Below are positions 1,732 to 21,365 of a stretch of 32,000 nt of DNA, piece after piece. The position numbers were made by a program, and so were the translations under genes. Where the stretch lies: positions 2,010,001-2,042,000 of the forward strand of contig NC_003450.3 of NCBI RefSeq assembly GCF_000011325.1, given 5' to 3'. A model generated the notes under the pieces. That model was not told the DNA's origin and did not search any database. It was given only the letters and a program-made list of their open reading frames with translations. The stretch comes from Corynebacterium glutamicum ATCC 13032. GTDB taxonomy: Bacteria > Actinomycetota > Actinomycetes > Mycobacteriales > Mycobacteriaceae. Numbering within the stretch: position 1 is the stretch's first letter; every line of letters begins with the position of its first letter.

Positions 1732-1874
1732 TATAGGTATTCGCACTTAAGAAACATCTCTCATGGAAAGAAGCTAGGCGGAAAGGGCGTTAAGTACTTG
1801 CCATTTAATCCTCAGCATCACTCGGATCAGTCGGAGATGTCGATGAAAATGCACCAGGAGCCGTGGAGAGCAGC

Positions 1875-3359
1875 ATGGTAGAAAACAACGTAGCAAAAAA
1901 GACGGTCGCTAAAAAGACCGCACGCAAGACCGCACGCAAAGCAGCCCCGCGCGTGGCAACCCCATTGGGAGTCGCATCTGAGTCTCCCATTTCGGCCACC
2001 CCTGCGCGCAGCATCGATGGAACCTCAACCCCTGTTGAAGCTGCTGACACCATAGAGACCACCGCCCCTGCAGCGAAGGCTCCTGCGGCCAAGGCTCCCG
2101 CTAAAAAGGTTGCCAAGAAGACAGCTCGCAAGGCACCTGCGAAAAAGACTGTCGCCAAGAAAGCCACAACCGCCAAGGCTGCACCTGCAACTGCCAAGGA
2201 CGAAAACGCACCTGTTGATGACGACGAGGAGAACCTCGCTCAGGATGAACAGGACTTCGACGGCGATGACTTCGTAGACGGCATCGAAGACGAAGAAGAT
2301 GAAGACGGCGTCGAAGCCCTCGGTGAAGAAAGCGAAGACGACGAAGAGGACGGCTCATCCGTTTGGGATGAAGACGAATCCGCAACCCTGCGTCAGGCAC
2401 GTAAAGATGCCGAGCTCACCGCTTCCGCCGACTCTGTTCGCGCTTACCTGAAGCAAATCGGTAAAGTTGCCCTGCTGAACGCTGAACAGGAAGTCTCCCT
2501 GGCAAAGCGCATCGAAGCAGGCCTTTACGCCACCCACCGCATGGAGGAAATGGAAGAAGCTTTCGCAGCCGGTGACAAGGACGCGAAACTCACCCCAGCC
2601 GTCAAGCGTGACCTCCGCGCCATCGCTCGTGACGGCCGCAAGGCGAAAAACCACCTCCTGGAAGCCAACCTTCGTCTGGTTGTCTCCCTGGCAAAGCGCT
2701 ACACCGGCCGTGGCATGGCATTCCTGGACCTCATCCAGGAAGGCAACCTCGGTCTGATTCGTGCCGTAGAGAAGTTCGACTACTCCAAGGGCTACAAGTT
2801 CTCCACCTACGCAACCTGGTGGATCCGTCAGGCAATCACCCGCGCCATGGCCGACCAAGCACGAACCATCCGTATCCCAGTCCACATGGTTGAAGTGATC
2901 AACAAACTTGGTCGCATCCAACGTGAACTCCTTCAGGAACTCGGCCGCGAACCAACCCCACAGGAACTGTCCAAAGAAATGGACATCTCCGAGGAAAAGG
3001 TACTGGAAATCCAGCAGTACGCCCGCGAACCAATCTCCCTGGACCAAACCATCGGCGACGAAGGCGACAGCCAGCTCGGCGACTTCATCGAAGACTCCGA
3101 AGCCGTCGTCGCAGTCGACGCCGTCTCATTCACCCTGCTGCAAGACCAGCTACAGGACGTCCTAGAGACCCTCTCCGAACGTGAAGCCGGCGTGGTTAAA
3201 CTCCGCTTCGGACTCACCGACGGAATGCCACGCACTTTAGACGAAATCGGCCAAGTTTACGGTGTCACCCGTGAGCGCATCCGCCAGATTGAGTCCAAGA
3301 CCATGTCTAAGCTGCGCCACCCATCACGCTCCCAGGTCCTTCGCGACTACCTGGACTAA
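1875..3359 (+). CDS. sigA: Primary (group 1) RNA polymerase sigma factor
   Basis: All conserved sigma-70 regions are readable:
- region 1.2: [21 protein letters not shown]
- region 2: [58 protein letters not shown]
- region 3: [15 protein letters not shown]
- region 4.2: [29 protein letters not shown]
ATG 1875 is preferred because GGAGAG at 1865-1870 can act as SD. The track start GTG 1863 is the alternative (+4 codons). Confidence 0.95.
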
Positions 3360-3379: not shown

Positions 3380-3430
3380 CCGGGCCGCCACTGTTTTCCT
3401 CTGCGGGGAACGGTGGTGGCCCGGTTTTTC
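3380..3430 (+). terminator. Rho-independent terminator of sigA
   Basis: 14-bp GC-rich stem ccgggccgccactg / cggtggtggcccgg (two G-U pairs) at 3380-3393 and 3411-3424, followed by TTTTT at 3425-3429. It starts 21 nt after the sigA stop. Confidence 0.85.
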
Positions 3431-3440
3431 TGTTGCTTTG

Positions 3441-3465
3441 GTTCGGCTGGTCACAGTTCGGCTGG
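3441..3465. repeat. Direct repeat gttcggctgg x2, 15-bp period
   Basis: gttcggctgg occurs at 3441-3450 and 3456-3465. This is the first periodic element after the sigA terminator. Confidence 0.6.
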
Positions 3466-3479
3466 GGTGTTTTAAGTTT

Positions 3480-3605
3480 GATTTCACATTGCCGATTTCT
3501 AAACGCCGAGTTCTCGGATTCGAGACCTTACCTGCAATTTCACGGTTACAATTTCTCGTTAGCACTTTCGCGTACTCAATTTCTTATGTTCAATTTCGGT
3601 CGGAA
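3480..3605. repeat. Array A: nine consecutive 14-bp phased units, core (G/A)A(T/G/C)TTC (CAATTTC in units 5, 6, 8, 9)
   Basis: Units start at 3480 gatttcacattgcc, 3494 gatttctaaacgcc, 3508 gagttctcggattc, 3522 gagaccttacctgc, 3536 aatttcacggttac, 3550 aatttctcgttagc, 3564 actttcgcgtactc, 3578 aatttcttatgttc and 3592 aatttcggtcggaa. Spacing is exactly 14 bp throughout. Confidence 0.8.
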
Positions 3606-3622
3606 AAGTGCCATTTTCCGAC
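3599..3622. other. Hairpin at the array A / array A' junction (9-bp stem, 6-nt loop)
   Basis: gtcggaaaa (3599-3607) and ttttccgac (3614-3622) are perfectly complementary. The loop is gtgcca. Confidence 0.7.
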
Positions 3623-3625
3623 ATC

Positions 3626-3681
3626 GCCTTGAGAAATTGAATACAAGAAATTGAGCGCAAGGTATCGAACTTGAGAAATTG
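3626..3681. repeat. Array A': inverted copies of the array A unit (GAAATTG) in the same 14-bp phase
   Basis: GAAATTG occurs at 3633, 3647 and 3675; slot 3661 is degenerate (ggtatcg). cttgagaaattga is repeated at 3628 and 3670. GAAATTG is the exact reverse complement of CAATTTC. Confidence 0.7.
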
Positions 3682-3731
3682 AGCTTTAGCACTCACTCCC
3701 CTGTTTGATGAAGTCAGCAAAGCCAAAAGAC

Positions 3732-3787
3732 GACTTCACATCTCCGACTTCTTAACAGCGACTTCTCGTGGCTGACTTCGCTACCTA
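3732..3787. repeat. Array B: four 14-bp phased units with core GACTTC
   Basis: Units are 3732 gacttcacatctcc, 3746 gacttcttaacagc, 3760 gacttctcgtggct and 3774 gacttcgctaccta. The first three match array A units 1-3 at 11/14, 10/14 and 8/14 positions by my hand alignment. Confidence 0.8.
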
Positions 3788-3805
3788 AACCTGAGTTTCC
3801 TTAGC

Positions 3806-3870
3806 GAAGTCGTGTGATGAGAAGTCGTGTGATGAGAAGTTGGGTATGAGAAGTCAGCACACGTGAAGTC
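3806..3870. repeat. Array B': five 14-15-bp phased units with core GAAGTC (reverse complement of GACTTC), including a perfect 15-bp tandem duplication
   Basis: gaagtcgtgtgatga occurs at 3806 and again at 3821 (identical), then gaagttgggtatga at 3836, gaagtcagcacacgt at 3850 and gaagtc at 3865. An isolated GAAGTCAGCA at 3710-3719 repeats the one at 3850-3859. Confidence 0.8.
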
Positions 3871-3995
3871 GCCTTTTCTCCCCGGCACGCTCGGAGTAGC
3901 GTGAAAGGTGGAATGGAGCGAGGTGGAACGGCGCATCCCTTGGACTTTTCCCTCACTCATCTGGAGGCGCCGATGTGGAAAGGAGAAGGCTAGCC

Positions 3996-4100
3996 ATGTT
4001 TATCAACGTCATGCCGGAACCAGGCCTTGGTGGACTTATCCAGCGATTCATGCAGTGGATTAGTTGCATGAGTTTCGGCGAGTGCATGGTCATCCAGTAG
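3996..4100 (+). CDS. Speculative small ORF, 34 aa (MFINVMPEPGLGGLIQRFMQWISCMSFGECMVIQ)
   Basis: ATG at 3996 is preceded by aaAGGAGAAGG (3979-3989). TAG at 4098-4100 is followed within 5 nt by a strong terminator. It is too short for the ORF track and I recognise no homology. Confidence 0.3.
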   Translation: MFINVMPEPGLGGLIQRFMQWISCMSFGECMVIQ

Positions 4101-4104
4101 TTAG

Positions 4105-4150
4105 AAAAGGCGCTCACCTCCAAAGCTTTGGAGGTGAGCGCTTTCTTGTT
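4105..4150. terminator. Bidirectional rho-independent terminator (near-perfect palindrome) between the small ORF and the convergent membrane-protein gene
   Basis: gcgctcacctccaaagctttggaggtgagcgc (4110-4141) is a perfect 32-nt palindrome. It is flanked by AAAA on the left and TTTCTTGTT on the right. Confidence 0.85.
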
Positions 4151-4158
4151 CGACTCGG

Positions 4159-5496
4159 CTAGTTGCCTTGAGTGTATTTGTCGGAGGCTTTGTCTAGTGG
4201 AGTTGTGCCAGGAATCTGTGGATATGCAGCTGGGGTTGGGAGTTGTTTAGGTACGTAGGGATCTTGGAGTCCTTTTTTGCCGTAGGCGATGTAGCGGTGC
4301 ATCGATTCGAATGGGCCTCGTTTGCCAGCTAGTTCGAGACCGTATGCTCCGATGAGGGTGAGAAGCCATACGCAGGTGGCTACGCCGGCTTCGGCAAGTA
4401 TTCCTCCACCTTGGCCGAGTCCTAAGGTGTAGGTTTGCGTGAGGATCAGGAACAGGATGGATTGTCCGACGTAACCGCTCATGGATCGGGCACCGAGGGC
4501 TGCGATCATTTTGATGGGAAGTGGGAGGTGCCCATTTCCTTTATTGATTTTTCTTTGTAGTGGCTGGACGAGCAGTGCCACTGCTGCAACGATGCCTGGT
4601 CCTGTCAAAGAGCCAACAGCTTGATTGAGACCGCTAAAGACCGTGGCTGTCTGTGCAGAAAATACTCCAATTTCGGCTAGTCCCCAGGGGACGCCAACCA
4701 GGACTGCGATTGCGATAAAGATCCACGTTGCAATCCATAGGGGTTTTCTAAATTCATCGACCCGAGAGAGGACTCGGTGGCGTGCTGCGATGTAGCCAAC
4801 AATCATCACTGGCATGAGCATGAGGATTTCCACAGGAACTGATCCGATTTGAATTGGAACAGAGAGCAGACCCATGCCTAGGTATTCCAGGTAGGAATCA
4901 AAGGTCAGGTCAAGGCTAGCCATGGTATCAGTGGACACACCGAAGTACAGAGGTAGAACAACTCCGAGTGTGATGCCAACGATGACATAGATTGCTGACA
5001 TGGAACCTGCGATCCACCACAGTGTTTTGTCTTTGAGGGTCATGAGCATGGCAAAAATCATGCCTGCGACACCGTAGAAGAACATGATGTCACCCCAGAA
5101 GAGAAACACCATGTGGATAACGCCGAAGAGTGCGAGAAATCCGTATCGCCGAAGCAGCACTCCCCTGGCTGCTGTGTCGGGGTATTGACGTCGCCAGAGG
5201 CTGTACACGATCATTCCGACGCCATATCCTAGAAGCGTGGAGAACATCGGTAGGCCTCGGACATGGATGAACATGGCGGAAAAGACAGCGTAGATCTTTT
5301 CAAAGATGGAGTCATGAACAATGCCACCAAGTGAGGCCGCTGTGGATCCCGCAGGAGCAGCAATCCATGCTGTGGAAACGTTGGCCAGCGCAATGCCGAG
5401 CAGTGCGATACCTCGGGCAATATCTGGTGAGAGGATTCTGGTTTTCTGTGCAGTGCGCACGGCTTTGGTGTGTGTCGTTGGCGCTGAGTCAGACAT
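4159..5496 (-). CDS. Polytopic membrane protein, YeiB/DUF418-like, 445 aa
   Basis: Track ORF 4159..5670 trimmed to the ATG at 5496 (MSDSAPTTH...), which is preceded by AAGGAA; the longer form would overlap the upstream gene. Family-like motifs are read by eye: SPDIARGIALLGIALANV, RGLPMFSTLLGYGVG and LLRRYGFLALFGVIHMVFLFWGDIMFFYG. It has many TM segments. Confidence 0.75.
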   Translation of the reverse strand: MSDSAPTTHTKAVRTAQKTRILSPDIARGIALLGIALANVSTAWIAAPAGSTAASLGGIVHDSIFEKIYAVFSAMFIHVRGLPMFSTLLGYGVGMIVYSLWRRQYPDTAARGVLLRRYGFLALFGVIHMVFLFWGDIMFFYGVAGMIFAMLMTLKDKTLWWIAGSMSAIYVIVGITLGVVLPLYFGVSTDTMASLDLTFDSYLEYLGMGLLSVPIQIGSVPVEILMLMPVMIVGYIAARHRVLSRVDEFRKPLWIATWIFIAIAVLVGVPWGLAEIGVFSAQTATVFSGLNQAVGSLTGPGIVAAVALLVQPLQRKINKGNGHLPLPIKMIAALGARSMSGYVGQSILFLILTQTYTLGLGQGGGILAEAGVATCVWLLTLIGAYGLELAGKRGPFESMHRYIAYGKKGLQDPYVPKQLPTPAAYPQIPGTTPLDKASDKYTQGN

Positions 5497-5581
5497 ACTT
5501 TCCTTAATACAAACGCTGGTTATCTCAAATGGAGAAAAGAAAACCCTATGACTTTTAGCTGTCACAGGGTTTCCAATCAAA

Positions 5582-6121
5582 TTAAGCGAAGAGCTCTTGA
5601 ATGCATTGTTCTTGAGCCGCGGGATCCGTGAGCGTTGCACACTCAGAAAGTCCAGAACTGCTGAAAACAACGAGTATCAATATGACGCCAATCGCAAGGA
5701 GGATCAAGGTCAGAATCGACAGGATCAGACCGGTAATGGCAAAGCCCTTGCGCCTGTTTGCTGGCACGAAGTTCTTTGCTTTCACCAGCGCGATAATGGC
5801 CACGATGACGCCTGCGAGAGCGAGGAATGGAGAGAGGAAAGCACCAAATACAGTCACCAGAGTTACGATGGAGGCAATACCTAAGCCGAGTGCCCACGCT
5901 GCTGCGGTGTTCTTTGGTGCATTCAGAGGTGAGTTTTCAAAGCCTCCGGTATAGCCCGATCCGTAAGGATCTTGATATCCAGACTGCTGTGCTCCAGAAG
6001 AAGGCCCAAACGATTCCCCGTAAGGCGCTCCGTAGGGTTCCCCCTGGTTGGCGTTGAACGGATCATTCGAGTTTCCGCCATTGTTGTTGGGTTCACCATA
6101 GGGGTAATTCGGAGTGGTCAT
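5582..6121 (-). CDS. DUF4190-like membrane protein with a Pro/Gly/Tyr/Asn-rich disordered N-terminus, 179 aa
   Basis: The N-terminal ~70 aa are low-complexity (PNYPYGEPNNNGGNSNDPFNANQGEPYGAPYGESFGP...). Two long hydrophobic segments follow (AAWALGLGIASIVTLVTVFGAFLSPFLALAGVIVAIIALV; GFAITGLILSILTLILLAIGVILILVVF). GGAAAGG lies before the ATG at 6121. Confidence 0.8.
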   Translation of the reverse strand: MTTPNYPYGEPNNNGGNSNDPFNANQGEPYGAPYGESFGPSSGAQQSGYQDPYGSGYTGGFENSPLNAPKNTAAAWALGLGIASIVTLVTVFGAFLSPFLALAGVIVAIIALVKAKNFVPANRRKGFAITGLILSILTLILLAIGVILILVVFSSSGLSECATLTDPAAQEQCIQELFA

Positions 6122-12958: not shown

Positions 12959-13948
12959 ATGAAGCTTCTGGTTACCGGTGGCGCTGGCTATGTTGGCAGC
13001 GTTGCTGCCGCTGTTCTTCTAGAACATGGGCACGATGTCACAATCATTGACAATTTCAGTACCGGCAACCGTGAAGCAGTCCCTGCTGACGCTCGCCTGA
13101 TAGAAGGTGACGTCAACGATGTCGTTGAGGAAGTCCTTTCTGAAGGCGGATTCGAGGGTGTCGTCCACTTCGCTGCTCGCTCATTGGTAGGCGAATCAGT
13201 GGAAAAGCCCAATGAATACTGGCACGACAATGTGGTCACGGCGCTCACCTTGCTCGATGCAATGCGTGCCCATGGGGTGAACAACCTTGTGTTCTCCTCC
13301 ACTGCTGCTACCTACGGTGAACCAGACGTTGTTCCCATCACCGAGGACATGCCCACCCAGCCCACCAATGCTTATGGCGCAACGAAGCTGTCCATCGACT
13401 ACGCAATTACGTCCTACGCTGCTGCCTTTGGTCTGGCTGCAACCAGCTTGCGCTACTTCAACGTTGCTGGCGCATACGGAAACATCGGTGAAAATCGTGA
13501 AGTTGAAACTCACCTCATTCCACTAGTGCTGCAGGTAGCAACCGGTCACCGCGAGAAAACCTTCATGTTCGGCGATGACTGGCCAACTCCCGATGGAACC
13601 GCGGTCCGCGATTACATCCACATTCTTGATCTTGCCAAAGCACACGTGTTGGCTTTGGAATCCAACGAAGCCGGTAAGCACCGCATTTTCAACCTTGGTT
13701 CCGGAGATGGCTACAGCGTGAAACAGGTTGTGGAGATGTGCCGTGAAGTAACCGGACATCCCATCCCGGCAGAGGTCGCACCCAGGCGTGCAGGAGATCC
13801 AGCAACACTAATTGCATCTTCTGAGAAGGCAAAGCAAGAACTGGGTTGGACCCCTGAGCACACTGATCTGCGCACCATCGTTGAGGACGCTTGGGCGTTT
13901 ACATCCGCACTGGGCGATCGTTCCCATGCTGCAAAGAAGAAAGCTTAA
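12959..13948 (+). CDS. galE: UDP-glucose 4-epimerase
   Basis: [14 protein letters not shown] is the Rossmann motif and YGATKL contains the YxxxK catalytic motif of the SDR family. It is 329 aa and starts 6 nt after the dtxR stop, which suggests an operon. Confidence 0.92.
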
Positions 13949-20273: not shown

Positions 20274-21365
20274 TTAGCGGCGCTCCACCGGAATATTTCC
20301 ACCACTGATCTGGCGGTAAATATGAACGGTAGACAGCATCATTACTGGCAGCACGATGATCAGGCCGAAACCGATCGTGAAAATACCGATGATGAGTGTG
20401 GCAAACCCGCCAACCAGGGAGAACAGCAACAACATTGGGTAGTTGCGCAGCGAGTCCTTGAAACCAGTTTGAACAGCGCTTCCTGCAGTGTGGTGACCAT
20501 CAGCTGTGTAGTACACCCAGTAGGAGTACAGAGGATTGATGAAGAACAACACCAGGTAGACGATGAAGAACATGCCTAAACCGCTGTTATTGACCTCAAC
20601 GGTACCGGCAGCGTCATTAAACGACACCAGATTTTGAGTGAGAAAAGTGGTGAAGGTGCCCAGGATGATGCCGAAGATACCCAGCCCCACCATCAGAATC
20701 ACTGTTTGACCAACATTGATGGGTTTAAAGAAATCACCGAAGCGAACTTTGTGTCCATCAACAGAAAGCAGTGCACCGCGCATGACGCAAATGGTTATTG
20801 CGAAGGTGATGATTCCGATAGCTACGTTCAACAGGGTCTCGGAAACCGAAAAACCAGAAGTCGTCGTGCCCGCATTAGGGTCGATCAAAAATGATAAGTA
20901 GCCAAGCAACCCACTCACAATCATGAACGCAAGGCCAAGACCGACGGTGCCCAAAATCCACACTGCTGGATTGGCAAACGTGGCTTTGAATCCGAAGCGA
21001 ATCGCCCGCATGATGTCGACTTTGCCGTTGCTCGCTTCCAGCGCCACGTCGTTCTGCGGTGAAGTAGCGCCATAACCTTGGTAGGAATTCTGGTACGGAG
21101 TCTGCGGGTATGGCTGACCGTAGCCTCCATATCCCGAAGCATTACCCGGGCCAAAGCCCTGACCATTGCCCTGACCATTGCCCTGAGCGTTGCCCCGGCT
21201 GTTACCCTGGCCGTTTCCCTGGAATCCTCCCGGCGCGTCCTCCGGATGCGAGGTCGGACCGTACTGGGAATCCTTATTTAGGTTCTGCCAGGATTGATCC
21301 CAGGACTGCTCGCGCGATGTGTCGTCGCCCTCACCGTTGTTGTTCGTCTGGTCGTCGCGGCTCAT
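20274..21365 (-). CDS. Polytopic membrane protein with a Gly/Gln/Asn/Tyr-rich disordered N-terminus, 363 aa
   Basis: The N-terminal ~110 aa are low-complexity (GGFQGNGQGNSRGNAQGNGQGNGQGFGPGNASGYGGYGQPYPQTPYQNSYQGYG). About six hydrophobic segments follow. AGGGAGGG lies upstream of the ATG at 21365. Confidence 0.8.
   Translation of the reverse strand: MSRDDQTNNNGEGDDTSREQSWDQSWQNLNKDSQYGPTSHPEDAPGGFQGNGQGNSRGNAQGNGQGNGQGFGPGNASGYGGYGQPYPQTPYQNSYQGYGATSPQNDVALEASNGKVDIMRAIRFGFKATFANPAVWILGTVGLGLAFMIVSGLLGYLSFLIDPNAGTTTSGFSVSETLLNVAIGIITFAITICVMRGALLSVDGHKVRFGDFFKPINVGQTVILMVGLGIFGIILGTFTTFLTQNLVSFNDAAGTVEVNNSGLGMFFIVYLVLFFINPLYSYWVYYTADGHHTAGSAVQTGFKDSLRNYPMLLLFSLVGGFATLIIGIFTIGFGLIIVLPVMMLSTVHIYRQISGGNIPVERR

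Follow-up and report, generated by a model that had tools for sequence, protein, structure and literature searches.

The closest described systems to the repeat treated here, a composite element behind the sigA gene of Corynebacterium glutamicum ATCC 13032, are the bacterial interspersed mosaic elements (BIMEs) of enterobacteria with their repetitive extragenic palindromic (REP) sequences, which are dispersed, extragenic and non-coding, consist of short palindromes that alternate in orientation, typically follow the 3′ ends of genes or operons, and vary in unit number. BIMEs are bound by gyrase, IHF and Pol I. REP sequences serve as targets for specific insertion sequence (IS) elements (PMC1525189). 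Foldback miniature inverted-repeat transposable elements (MITEs) are likewise non-coding, with terminal inverted repeats, TTAA ends and arms of oppositely oriented tandem subrepeats, and occur in multiple dispersed copies whose presence or absence differs between related species. Arrays of cores of about 7 bp, first direct and then inverted, are found in the omega (pSM19035), ParR-parC and TubR-tubC systems. The element that we describe shares these structural traits. It lies in a window of 32,000 nucleotides (NC_003450.3, positions 2,010,001 to 2,042,000), the ppgK-sigA to sigB-galE region, to which our coordinates refer, and on balance we read its roughly 400 bp (3472-3877) as copy A of a dispersed, MITE/BIME-like foldback repeat family with cores as putative protein-binding sites. 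The family is composite and non-coding, and its range is C. glutamicum and its closest relatives.

Copy A consists of two modules. Autocorrelation at a lag of 14 nt gave z = 7.3 to 8.4 relative to 500 shuffles, with z = 6.7 to 7.5 at a lag of 28, and a comparable lag-14 signal was found nowhere else in the window. A sequence-only reading of this stretch had described a nine-slot 14-bp grid from 3480 to 3592, a 9-bp-stem hairpin at 3599-3622 and inverted GAAATTG cores, and had proposed the periodicity test; all of its coordinates hold, as does the periodicity (7.3 to 8.4 standard deviations). Module 1 opens with a terminus at 3472-3487 (forward strand; TTAAG TTTGATTTCAC), which recurs in copies B (TCTTAAGTTCGATTTCAC) and D (CTTAGGTTCGATTTCAC) and in C. 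suranareeae (TCTTAAGTACGATTTCAC). Its left arm (3479-3598, forward) holds nine 14-bp slots, each made of a 7-nt core CRAYTTC and a 7-nt spacer; hexamers of the form RAnTTC stand on the exact grid at 3480, 3494, 3508, 3536, 3550, 3578 and 3592, and the slots starting at 3521 and 3563 are off core, with GAGACC at 3522 and ACTTTC at 3564. The former had been taken for the sole deviant, which is correct except that 3564 deviates too. Units 5, 6, 8 and 9 read CAATTTC, and after the central hairpin (3599-3622; perfect 9-bp stem GTCGGAAAA / TTTTCCGAC, 6-nt loop) the right arm (3626-3690, reverse strand) carries inverted units with GAAATTG cores at 3633, 3647 and 3675, and holds GGTATCGAACTTGAG, the counterpart of the right terminus of copy B. 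The two slots called degenerate in the sequence-only reading (3522 and 3661) are complementary to each other, TTCGAGACCTT (3518-3528) agreeing with the reverse-complemented AAGGTATCGAA (3658-3668) in 10 of 11 positions.

The feature had been thought to end at 3681, and though module 1 up to that point is real, a linker (3691-3724), which varies among copies in length and sequence and here contains a lone GAAGTC at 3710, leads on to a paralogous module 2 (3725-3877), in which 3732-3768 is 78% identical to 3480-3516 over 37 nt. The left arm of module 2 (3725-3779, forward) has AAAAGA ahead of four units with the core (C/T)GACTTC at 3731, 3745, 3759 and 3773 (GACTTC at 3732, 3746, 3760 and 3774), its centre (3780-3805) is an inverted repeat forming a central stem-loop, and its right arm (3806-3877, reverse) contains five inverted units spaced 14-15 bp apart, with GAAGTC or GAAGTT at 3806, 3821, 3836, 3850 and 3865. 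The module is bounded by a terminal inverted repeat, AAAAGACGACTTCAC ... GTGAAGTCGCCTTTT. We make no claim that module 2 of copy A is inverted relative to C. suranareeae or copy B: the alignment scores of the two orientations are close because the module is palindromic.

The region is non-coding, as had been proposed, and is not a coding repeat; the open reading frames (ORFs) within the element, in which no protein-family search was made, are short, overlap on both strands and cross the 14-bp repeats. Clustered regularly interspaced short palindromic repeats (CRISPR) had been rightly excluded, given cores of 7 bp, spacers of 7-8 bp and an array that is inverted halfway, where CRISPR arrays have repeats of 23-55 bp, spacers of much the same length, a leader and usually cas genes. 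A scan of ten large ORFs up to position 13948 gave no CRISPR-associated family at its curated cut-off, with just a weak partial Cas3-helicase match in one ORF (24 bits, cut-off 102).

The element is not confined to sigA. We scanned metagenome contigs for a phased pattern of four unit cores, and among the matches listed, mostly perfect 14-bp minisatellites, one contig (L194) had variable spacers and an inverted block and provided a second copy. This contig is C. glutamicum, its PorA-family protein being 98% identical to a C. glutamicum protein. We label the copies A (sigA), B (rplL), D (tuf), E (pheT) and G (upstream of cg0505), with A_win for the window and A_sur for the sigA copy of C. suranareeae. 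The layout around copy B (L194, L269-L276) is rplJ, rplL, a terminator, module 1, module 2, a PorA-family gene (cg0575) and rpoB; C. callunae is without copy B and has only 80 bp at the equivalent position. Further members in ATCC 13032 come from sequences in the supplements of PMC3890552: a full element (copy D) behind tuf (cg0587), with cg0588 as the next gene, copy E behind cg1575, a gene whose product has the FDX-ACB domain of PheT at its C-terminus, a solo module 2 (copy G) upstream of cg0505 (BX927147 447669-447800), and a family fragment near cg3214. In BX927147, copies of the family stand at 511.07-511.41 kb, 527.65-527.97 kb, 1462.0-1462.3 kb and, for copy A, 1983.52-1983.93 kb. The distribution is of the REP/BIME type, with at least six intergenic loci in C. 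glutamicum, four of them immediately past the sigA, rplL, tuf and pheT terminators. RNA sequencing (RNA-seq) scored the terminators ahead of the sigA, rplL and tuf copies as significant termination sites (PMC3890552). The one behind sigA, a 20-bp stem followed by a T run (3380-3424, forward), forms the upstream boundary of copy A, lies outside it, and corresponds to BX927147 1983428-1983472, graded "stem 1", that is, significant termination (PMC3890552 supplement file 10). Since homologous copies lie behind rplL, tuf and pheT and before cg0505, the element is not specific to sigA. We found no repeat family of this kind for C. glutamicum in the open literature that we searched.

The copies are colinear, with a whole-element identity of 68% between A_sur and B and 57% between A_win and B, and the second modules of B and D are 87% identical. 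Over 77 units from seven copies, 39 of the 69 same-strand core-to-core distances are 14 bp and another 15 are 15 bp. The unit can be written as the core C-R-A-Y-T-T-C, followed by a weak W-C-R; the other positions are nearly without information across units. The spacers are unit-specific yet common to several copies (for instance ACGTGGT, TCATCAC and AGTAGGA), and the ancestral element must therefore already have had several distinct units. A BLAST search of plasmids and phages with 3440-3900 gave no match, and pattern scans of viral contigs returned only coding repeats and one phage array.

This array, met through its fit to the search pattern and probably unrelated to the C. glutamicum family, lies on a phage contig of 53% GC (L151, IMGVR_UViG_3300032093_008297, 4650-5050), where about 28 units of 14 bp (NNNAACTTCTCAAA) make up 400 bp of AT-rich non-coding sequence between a glycosyltransferase-like gene and an exonuclease gene. 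A pattern of three CRAYTTC-N7 units, searched in a genome collection, lets N7 equal the core, hence the heptanucleotide microsatellites (CGACTTC)n, (CAACTTC)n, (CAATTTC)n and (CGATTTC)n among the matches listed (L004-L123), often of 5-30 copies and mainly in metagenome-assembled genomes labelled Bacteroidota, Verrucomicrobiota and Acidobacteriota.

A comparison of the sigA locus among strains and relatives, a check proposed in the sequence-only reading, gives a mixed answer as to conservation. C. suranareeae has both modules between sigA and the DUF418 gene (L001 6016-6350), with fewer units and other spacers. The gap between the two genes is just 65-67 bp in C. efficiens and in L141, scarcely beyond a terminator, no similarity to the element is detectable in the 517-bp spacer of C. 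crudilactis, and L130 has the left terminus and two units (CTTTAGTTCGAGTTCACAGCAACGACTGCAC) together with the downstream small gene cg2094. In C. suranareeae a further 450 bp or so, absent from C. glutamicum and with no convincing ORF, lie between the sigA terminator and the element (L001 5570-6015). Within C. glutamicum copy A is nearly invariant, except that entire units come and go in the right arm of module 2 and that one strain diverges; unit insertions and deletions are also seen in copy B. In that strain (L133, GCA_013014865.1) the equivalent of 3577-3655 is a palindrome with a perfect 31-bp stem, CAATTTCTTATGTTCAATTTCGGTCGGAAAA gtgcca TTTTCCGACCGAAATTGAACATAAGAAATTG, around the module 1 hairpin, where the window strain has a 10-nt insertion and three mismatches. 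Because the two arms are perfectly complementary over 31 bp, the palindrome looks like the result of an arm-to-arm template-switch conversion. Many contigs of short-read C. glutamicum assemblies (L128, L129, L134-L139, L145-L148) stop in or just before copy A, 14-597 nt past the sigA stop codon, and a single project accounts for at least 12 contigs that break off at +488, within the right arm of module 2. These ends fit assembly breaks caused by the internal repeats, the dispersed copies or both.

Within the units it is the cores that are kept. As had been noted from copy A by eye, a conserved core alternates with a variable spacer in two opposed blocks, and a core position carries 1.42 bits of information, a spacer position 0.37. 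Single-nucleotide polymorphisms (SNPs) in copy A among 13 C. glutamicum sequences fall on 1 of 154 core sites compared to 12 of 136 spacer sites (binomial p = 0.0008). A similar picture emerges between copies: when the cores are called in just one sequence of each pair, divergence is 4-11% at cores and 20-34% elsewhere (Fisher p between 0.01 and 1e-7), and cores change 3-5 times more slowly; the few core changes in copy B are mostly at the degenerate R and Y positions. Taken together, the core CRAYTTC appears to be kept by selection. The cores stay in place while the spacers drift, and as neutral decay would hit all positions, we infer that the core is recognised by a presently active factor, putatively a sequence-specific DNA-binding protein. 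The earlier suggestion of a protein-binding array stands to this extent, that the cores behave like recognition sites in both tests; it does not stand as a one-off device linked to sigA, given the copies at rplL, tuf, pheT and cg0505.

The alternative is that it is a hairpin that is conserved. Folding is much stronger in both modules than in shuffled controls (z = -4.2 to -7.0). However, the two strands fold equally well (-66 and -70 kcal/mol for module 1, -74.5 and -74.1 kcal/mol for module 2), and the covariation that had been proposed as a check finds no support, the arm-to-arm identity at spacer positions 4-7 being the same (47%) whether the arms come from one copy or from different copies. 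As both strands fold equally and spacer complementarity is not specially kept, a sequence motif is favoured over a hairpin.

Several ends of the modules look like those of a mobile element. In copy B, the ends of module 1 form an inverted repeat of 12 bp (CTTAAGTTCGAT ... ATCGAACTTAAG), so that in this module and in module 2 of copy A we find terminal inverted repeats without coding capacity, as in MITEs. The right terminus of module 2, GAAGTCGCC(C)TT(T)AAG, is common to copies A, B, E and G, the version of B in L272 and L275, and C. suranareeae; this reading of one module 2 end holds for five loci. TTAA adjoins the module termini at several loci, and the two modules of copy E meet on a single TTAA, which suggests that TTAA may be a target-site duplication.

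The central loop of module 2 has itself been a target. In several metagenome and read-archive assemblies an IS30-family transposase gene (HTH_38 and rve domains) is represented by its 3′ part ahead of copy B, its last bases joined to the loop of module 2; the 598-aa transposase has a C. suranareeae transposase as its closest named relative (84%). At the junction, L272, which carries the IS, reads ...CCACCCAA and then TGACAGCGCC..., compared to ...GGAAATCC TGACATTGCC... in the intact L275, and L269 was compared likewise. IS30 inserts preferentially into hot spots of nearly palindromic sequence and into its own inverted repeats (PMC9333248). The identity of the IS in L272 with ISCg2 is not established, no match being named ISCg2, and we limit our claim to the IS30 family. 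A 1999 paper by Quast et al. (Mol Gen Genet 262:568; cited in PMC13577085) reportedly describes ISCg2, of which ATCC 13032 has five copies, as a C. glutamicum IS30-family element that prefers conserved intergenic "conserved target sequences" next to genes. The IS30-family element in a loop of module 2 is an indirect hint that the target sequences of 1999 may overlap with the present repeat family. Between copy B and the PorA-family gene, L272 (1622-2482; also L275, L277 and L278) has a segment of about 1.1 kb that encodes a 286-aa protein with no Pfam match and whose 5′ flank holds another CTTAAGGG motif; this site may be an insertion hot spot.

We also compared the copies with published transcript data, a check suggested earlier, with a divided outcome. 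Among the RNA-seq entries listed in PMC3890552, there is no transcription start site (TSS), novel transcript or small RNA between cg2092 and cg2095, and no TSS or novel transcript inside copies A or B; the small-RNA catalogue lists nothing in the spacers of the copies. The transcripts of cg0575 and cg0588 are leaderless and start some 70-125 bp beyond the element. The antisense-transcript table (PMC3890552 file 8) has an RNA of 336 nt for copy D and one of 351 nt for copy E; both cover the element on the opposite strand to that of the gene upstream, with no TSS detected. Rfam gave no family at the gathering threshold, and a relaxed search only sub-threshold generic miRNA-type hairpins on both strands. 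Copy G has two mapped TSS, and as the -10 box of one (TAGACT) derives from a degenerate unit core, a copy of the repeat has here been recruited as a promoter. The element is not silent everywhere, yet there is no sign of a dedicated RNA gene.

The reading we prefer, that of a MITE/BIME-like foldback family with putative protein-binding cores, would bring these observations together as follows. Each module is a tandem array of 14/15-bp units, made of the 7-bp core and a unit-specific spacer, followed by the same array inverted, and the arrays change through gain and loss of whole units and arm-to-arm conversion. The element would most likely have spread as a non-autonomous, TTAA-flanked, MITE-like sequence, and copies would at present behave like enterobacterial BIMEs, as a protein-binding extragenic palindrome behind heavily transcribed genes. 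The sequence-only reading had dismissed REP elements, which was premature, as an extragenic, palindromic sequence that follows terminators and is an IS target is BIME/REP- or MITE-like in its genomic distribution. It differs from BIMEs in having a direct 14/15-bp subrepeat with a 7-bp core in place of a REP hairpin of 35-40 bp, and in the phylum of its host; the 20-40-bp imperfect palindrome with a GTAG/CGTC tag that defines a REP unit is absent, and no search was made for a RAYT transposase. The modules resemble foldback MITEs down to their size of about 150 bp, with the difference that the cores stay conserved after insertion, which is unexpected of inert MITE copies. Several points weigh against our reading. 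The polymorphism test has 13 segregating sites, and 3 of the 12 in spacers come from one conversion event, while the divergence test picks cores that are intact in one copy, which inflates the contrast somewhat. The core-binding protein is putative, the cores being known from sequence. There is no clean empty site, the C. callunae, C. efficiens and L141 loci being too diverged to define a junction, and TTAA could therefore belong to the terminus instead of being a target duplication, so that mobility is only putative. No autonomous parent with matching ends was found among plasmids, phages and viral contigs, the antisense transcripts over D and E leave room for a role at the RNA level, and the copy number in the complete genome is a lower bound. 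A more specific version, to which we would give only limited credence, is an actinobacterial BIME-like system in which a dedicated host protein (for example a topoisomerase or a nucleoid-associated protein) would recognise the CRAYTTC arrays, which, just past the terminators of the genes with the heaviest transcription (sigA, rplL, tuf, pheT), would absorb transcription-driven supercoiling or insulate the next promoter; the arrays would have been seeded by a hitherto unrecognised type of bacterial foldback transposon with 14-bp subterminal repeats and TTAA targets.

It is rather doubtful that the family is instead a neutral, decaying minisatellite-plus-palindrome, generated through slippage with inverted duplication and then spread to a few sites, with neither binder nor function. 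Such an origin would suit the whole units gained and lost between strains, the palindrome "correction" in L133, which is typical of template switching, the hypervariable intergenic site and the confinement to one lineage with absence from near relatives. It does not suit the cores, which are 3-5 times better kept in both orthologous and paralogous copies; as the units of the rplL and tuf copies still correspond one to one, slippage fails to explain this conservation, and SNPs within the species avoid the cores where decay should strike all 14 positions equally. We consider it unlikely, too, that the element is a purely selfish MITE whose cores are subterminal sites for a transposase encoded elsewhere, with no host role. 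The terminal inverted repeats of copy B, the TTAA flanks with the one shared by the two modules of copy E, and dispersed copies whose presence varies among species are all as expected of one, but an inert copy should decay uniformly after insertion, the plasmids, phages and viral contigs searched held no matching transposase or autonomous element, and TTAA is a target duplication only putatively.

A structured non-coding RNA of long imperfect hairpins, which had been offered as an alternative, is improbable. The strength of folding and the transcripts over D and E speak for it; it is weakened by the equal folding of the strands, by spacer pairing that is no better within than between copies, by Rfam matches that stay below threshold on both strands, by the strong terminators that precede A, B and D, and by the absence of any listed TSS or small RNA in A and B. 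Least probable of all, and by a wide measure doubtful, is the main idea of the sequence-only reading, a locus-specific binding array (operator, iteron or centromere-like) serving the 3′ end of sigA or cg2094. A conserved core with variable spacer at fixed phase in two opposed blocks is what such arrays look like, including those of omega, ParR-parC and TubR-tubC, where the phase would wind protein around the DNA, and the end of module 2 lies about 20 bp before the candidate -10 box (TAGCGT, 3897-3902) of a putative promoter for cg2094. However, the paralogous copies behind rplL, tuf and pheT largely refute it, and transcription of sigA already stops at its own terminator. Iteron arrays of replication origins are direct repeats of 17-22 bp in one orientation, beside an initiator gene and an AT-rich unwinding region. 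The omega, parC and tubC arrays adjoin genes for the binder and a nucleoside triphosphatase (NTPase) on plasmids or phages and have periods of 7, 11 or 12 bp, whereas the units here, spaced by 14-15 bp and in both orientations, occur at several chromosomal sites and have no plasmid or phage match. Copy A is flanked by sigA, a 34-aa ORF and the gene for a DUF418 membrane protein, and the others by rplL and a PorA-family gene, tuf and cg0588, and pheT, with no rep, par or ribbon-helix-helix gene near copy A, no rep gene by any copy seen, and no adaptor or NTPase gene near the element or beside copies B, D and E. As no replication or partition gene lies beside any copy seen, the iteron and parC/tubC-type readings fail.

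In the window, sigA (1863-3359, forward) and the DUF418 membrane-protein gene (4159-5670, reverse) are convergent and separated by 800 bp, and beyond the element this spacer contains the small gene cg2094 (3996-4100, forward), which encodes 34 aa (MFINVMPEPGLGGLIQRFMQWISCMSFGECMVIQ) and has a strong Shine-Dalgarno sequence, a leader at 3903-3995 and a terminator at 4110-4141. In L130, a relative with 85% identity in SigA, the gene is kept and shows 4 synonymous and 3 conservative changes; Pfam and Rfam searches with cg2094 gave no match, and in the literature the locus tags cg2094, cg2095 and NCgl1837 led to nothing but human CpG probe identifiers and Drosophila genes. About 90 nt upstream of it are also conserved in L130 and hold a 14-nt direct repeat, AGGTGGAAYGGMGC (3906-3934). 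C. suranareeae has the element and no cg2094, and L130 has cg2094 with the element reduced to its left terminus and two units. Element and gene thus occur independently, and we rejected a functional tie between them.

Two other candidates were rejected for copy A. The RNA polymerase-binding CoRP of C. glutamicum, a 6S-like RNA, maps between tRNA genes elsewhere in the genome, and a tRNA search found none in the element region. A Chi-like recombination hot spot is not borne out by GACTTC and GAAGTC, which in the window outside the element occur 9 and 8 times compared to about 7.8 expected, with no strand skew. Elsewhere in the window, a minus-strand ORF of 363 aa (20274-21365) with no Pfam match contains a 12-bp tandem repeat at 21156-21221 (GCCCTGACCGTT, 5.5 copies, 81% matches), presumably a four-residue coding repeat.

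Corynebacterium glutamicum is both a major industrial organism and a model actinobacterium. If it is true that a host protein binds the cores, the family would mark a device for chromosome organisation or insulation downstream of the strongest transcription units, and an independently evolved analogue of the still poorly understood BIMEs of E. coli. If it is instead true that the family is a mobile foldback element, it would represent a new architecture among bacterial MITEs, and would help to explain local genome instability in the form of unit-number variation, IS insertion and assembly breaks. The copies next to sigA, rplL, tuf and pheT are hot spots for rearrangement and IS insertion and as such are relevant to strain engineering.

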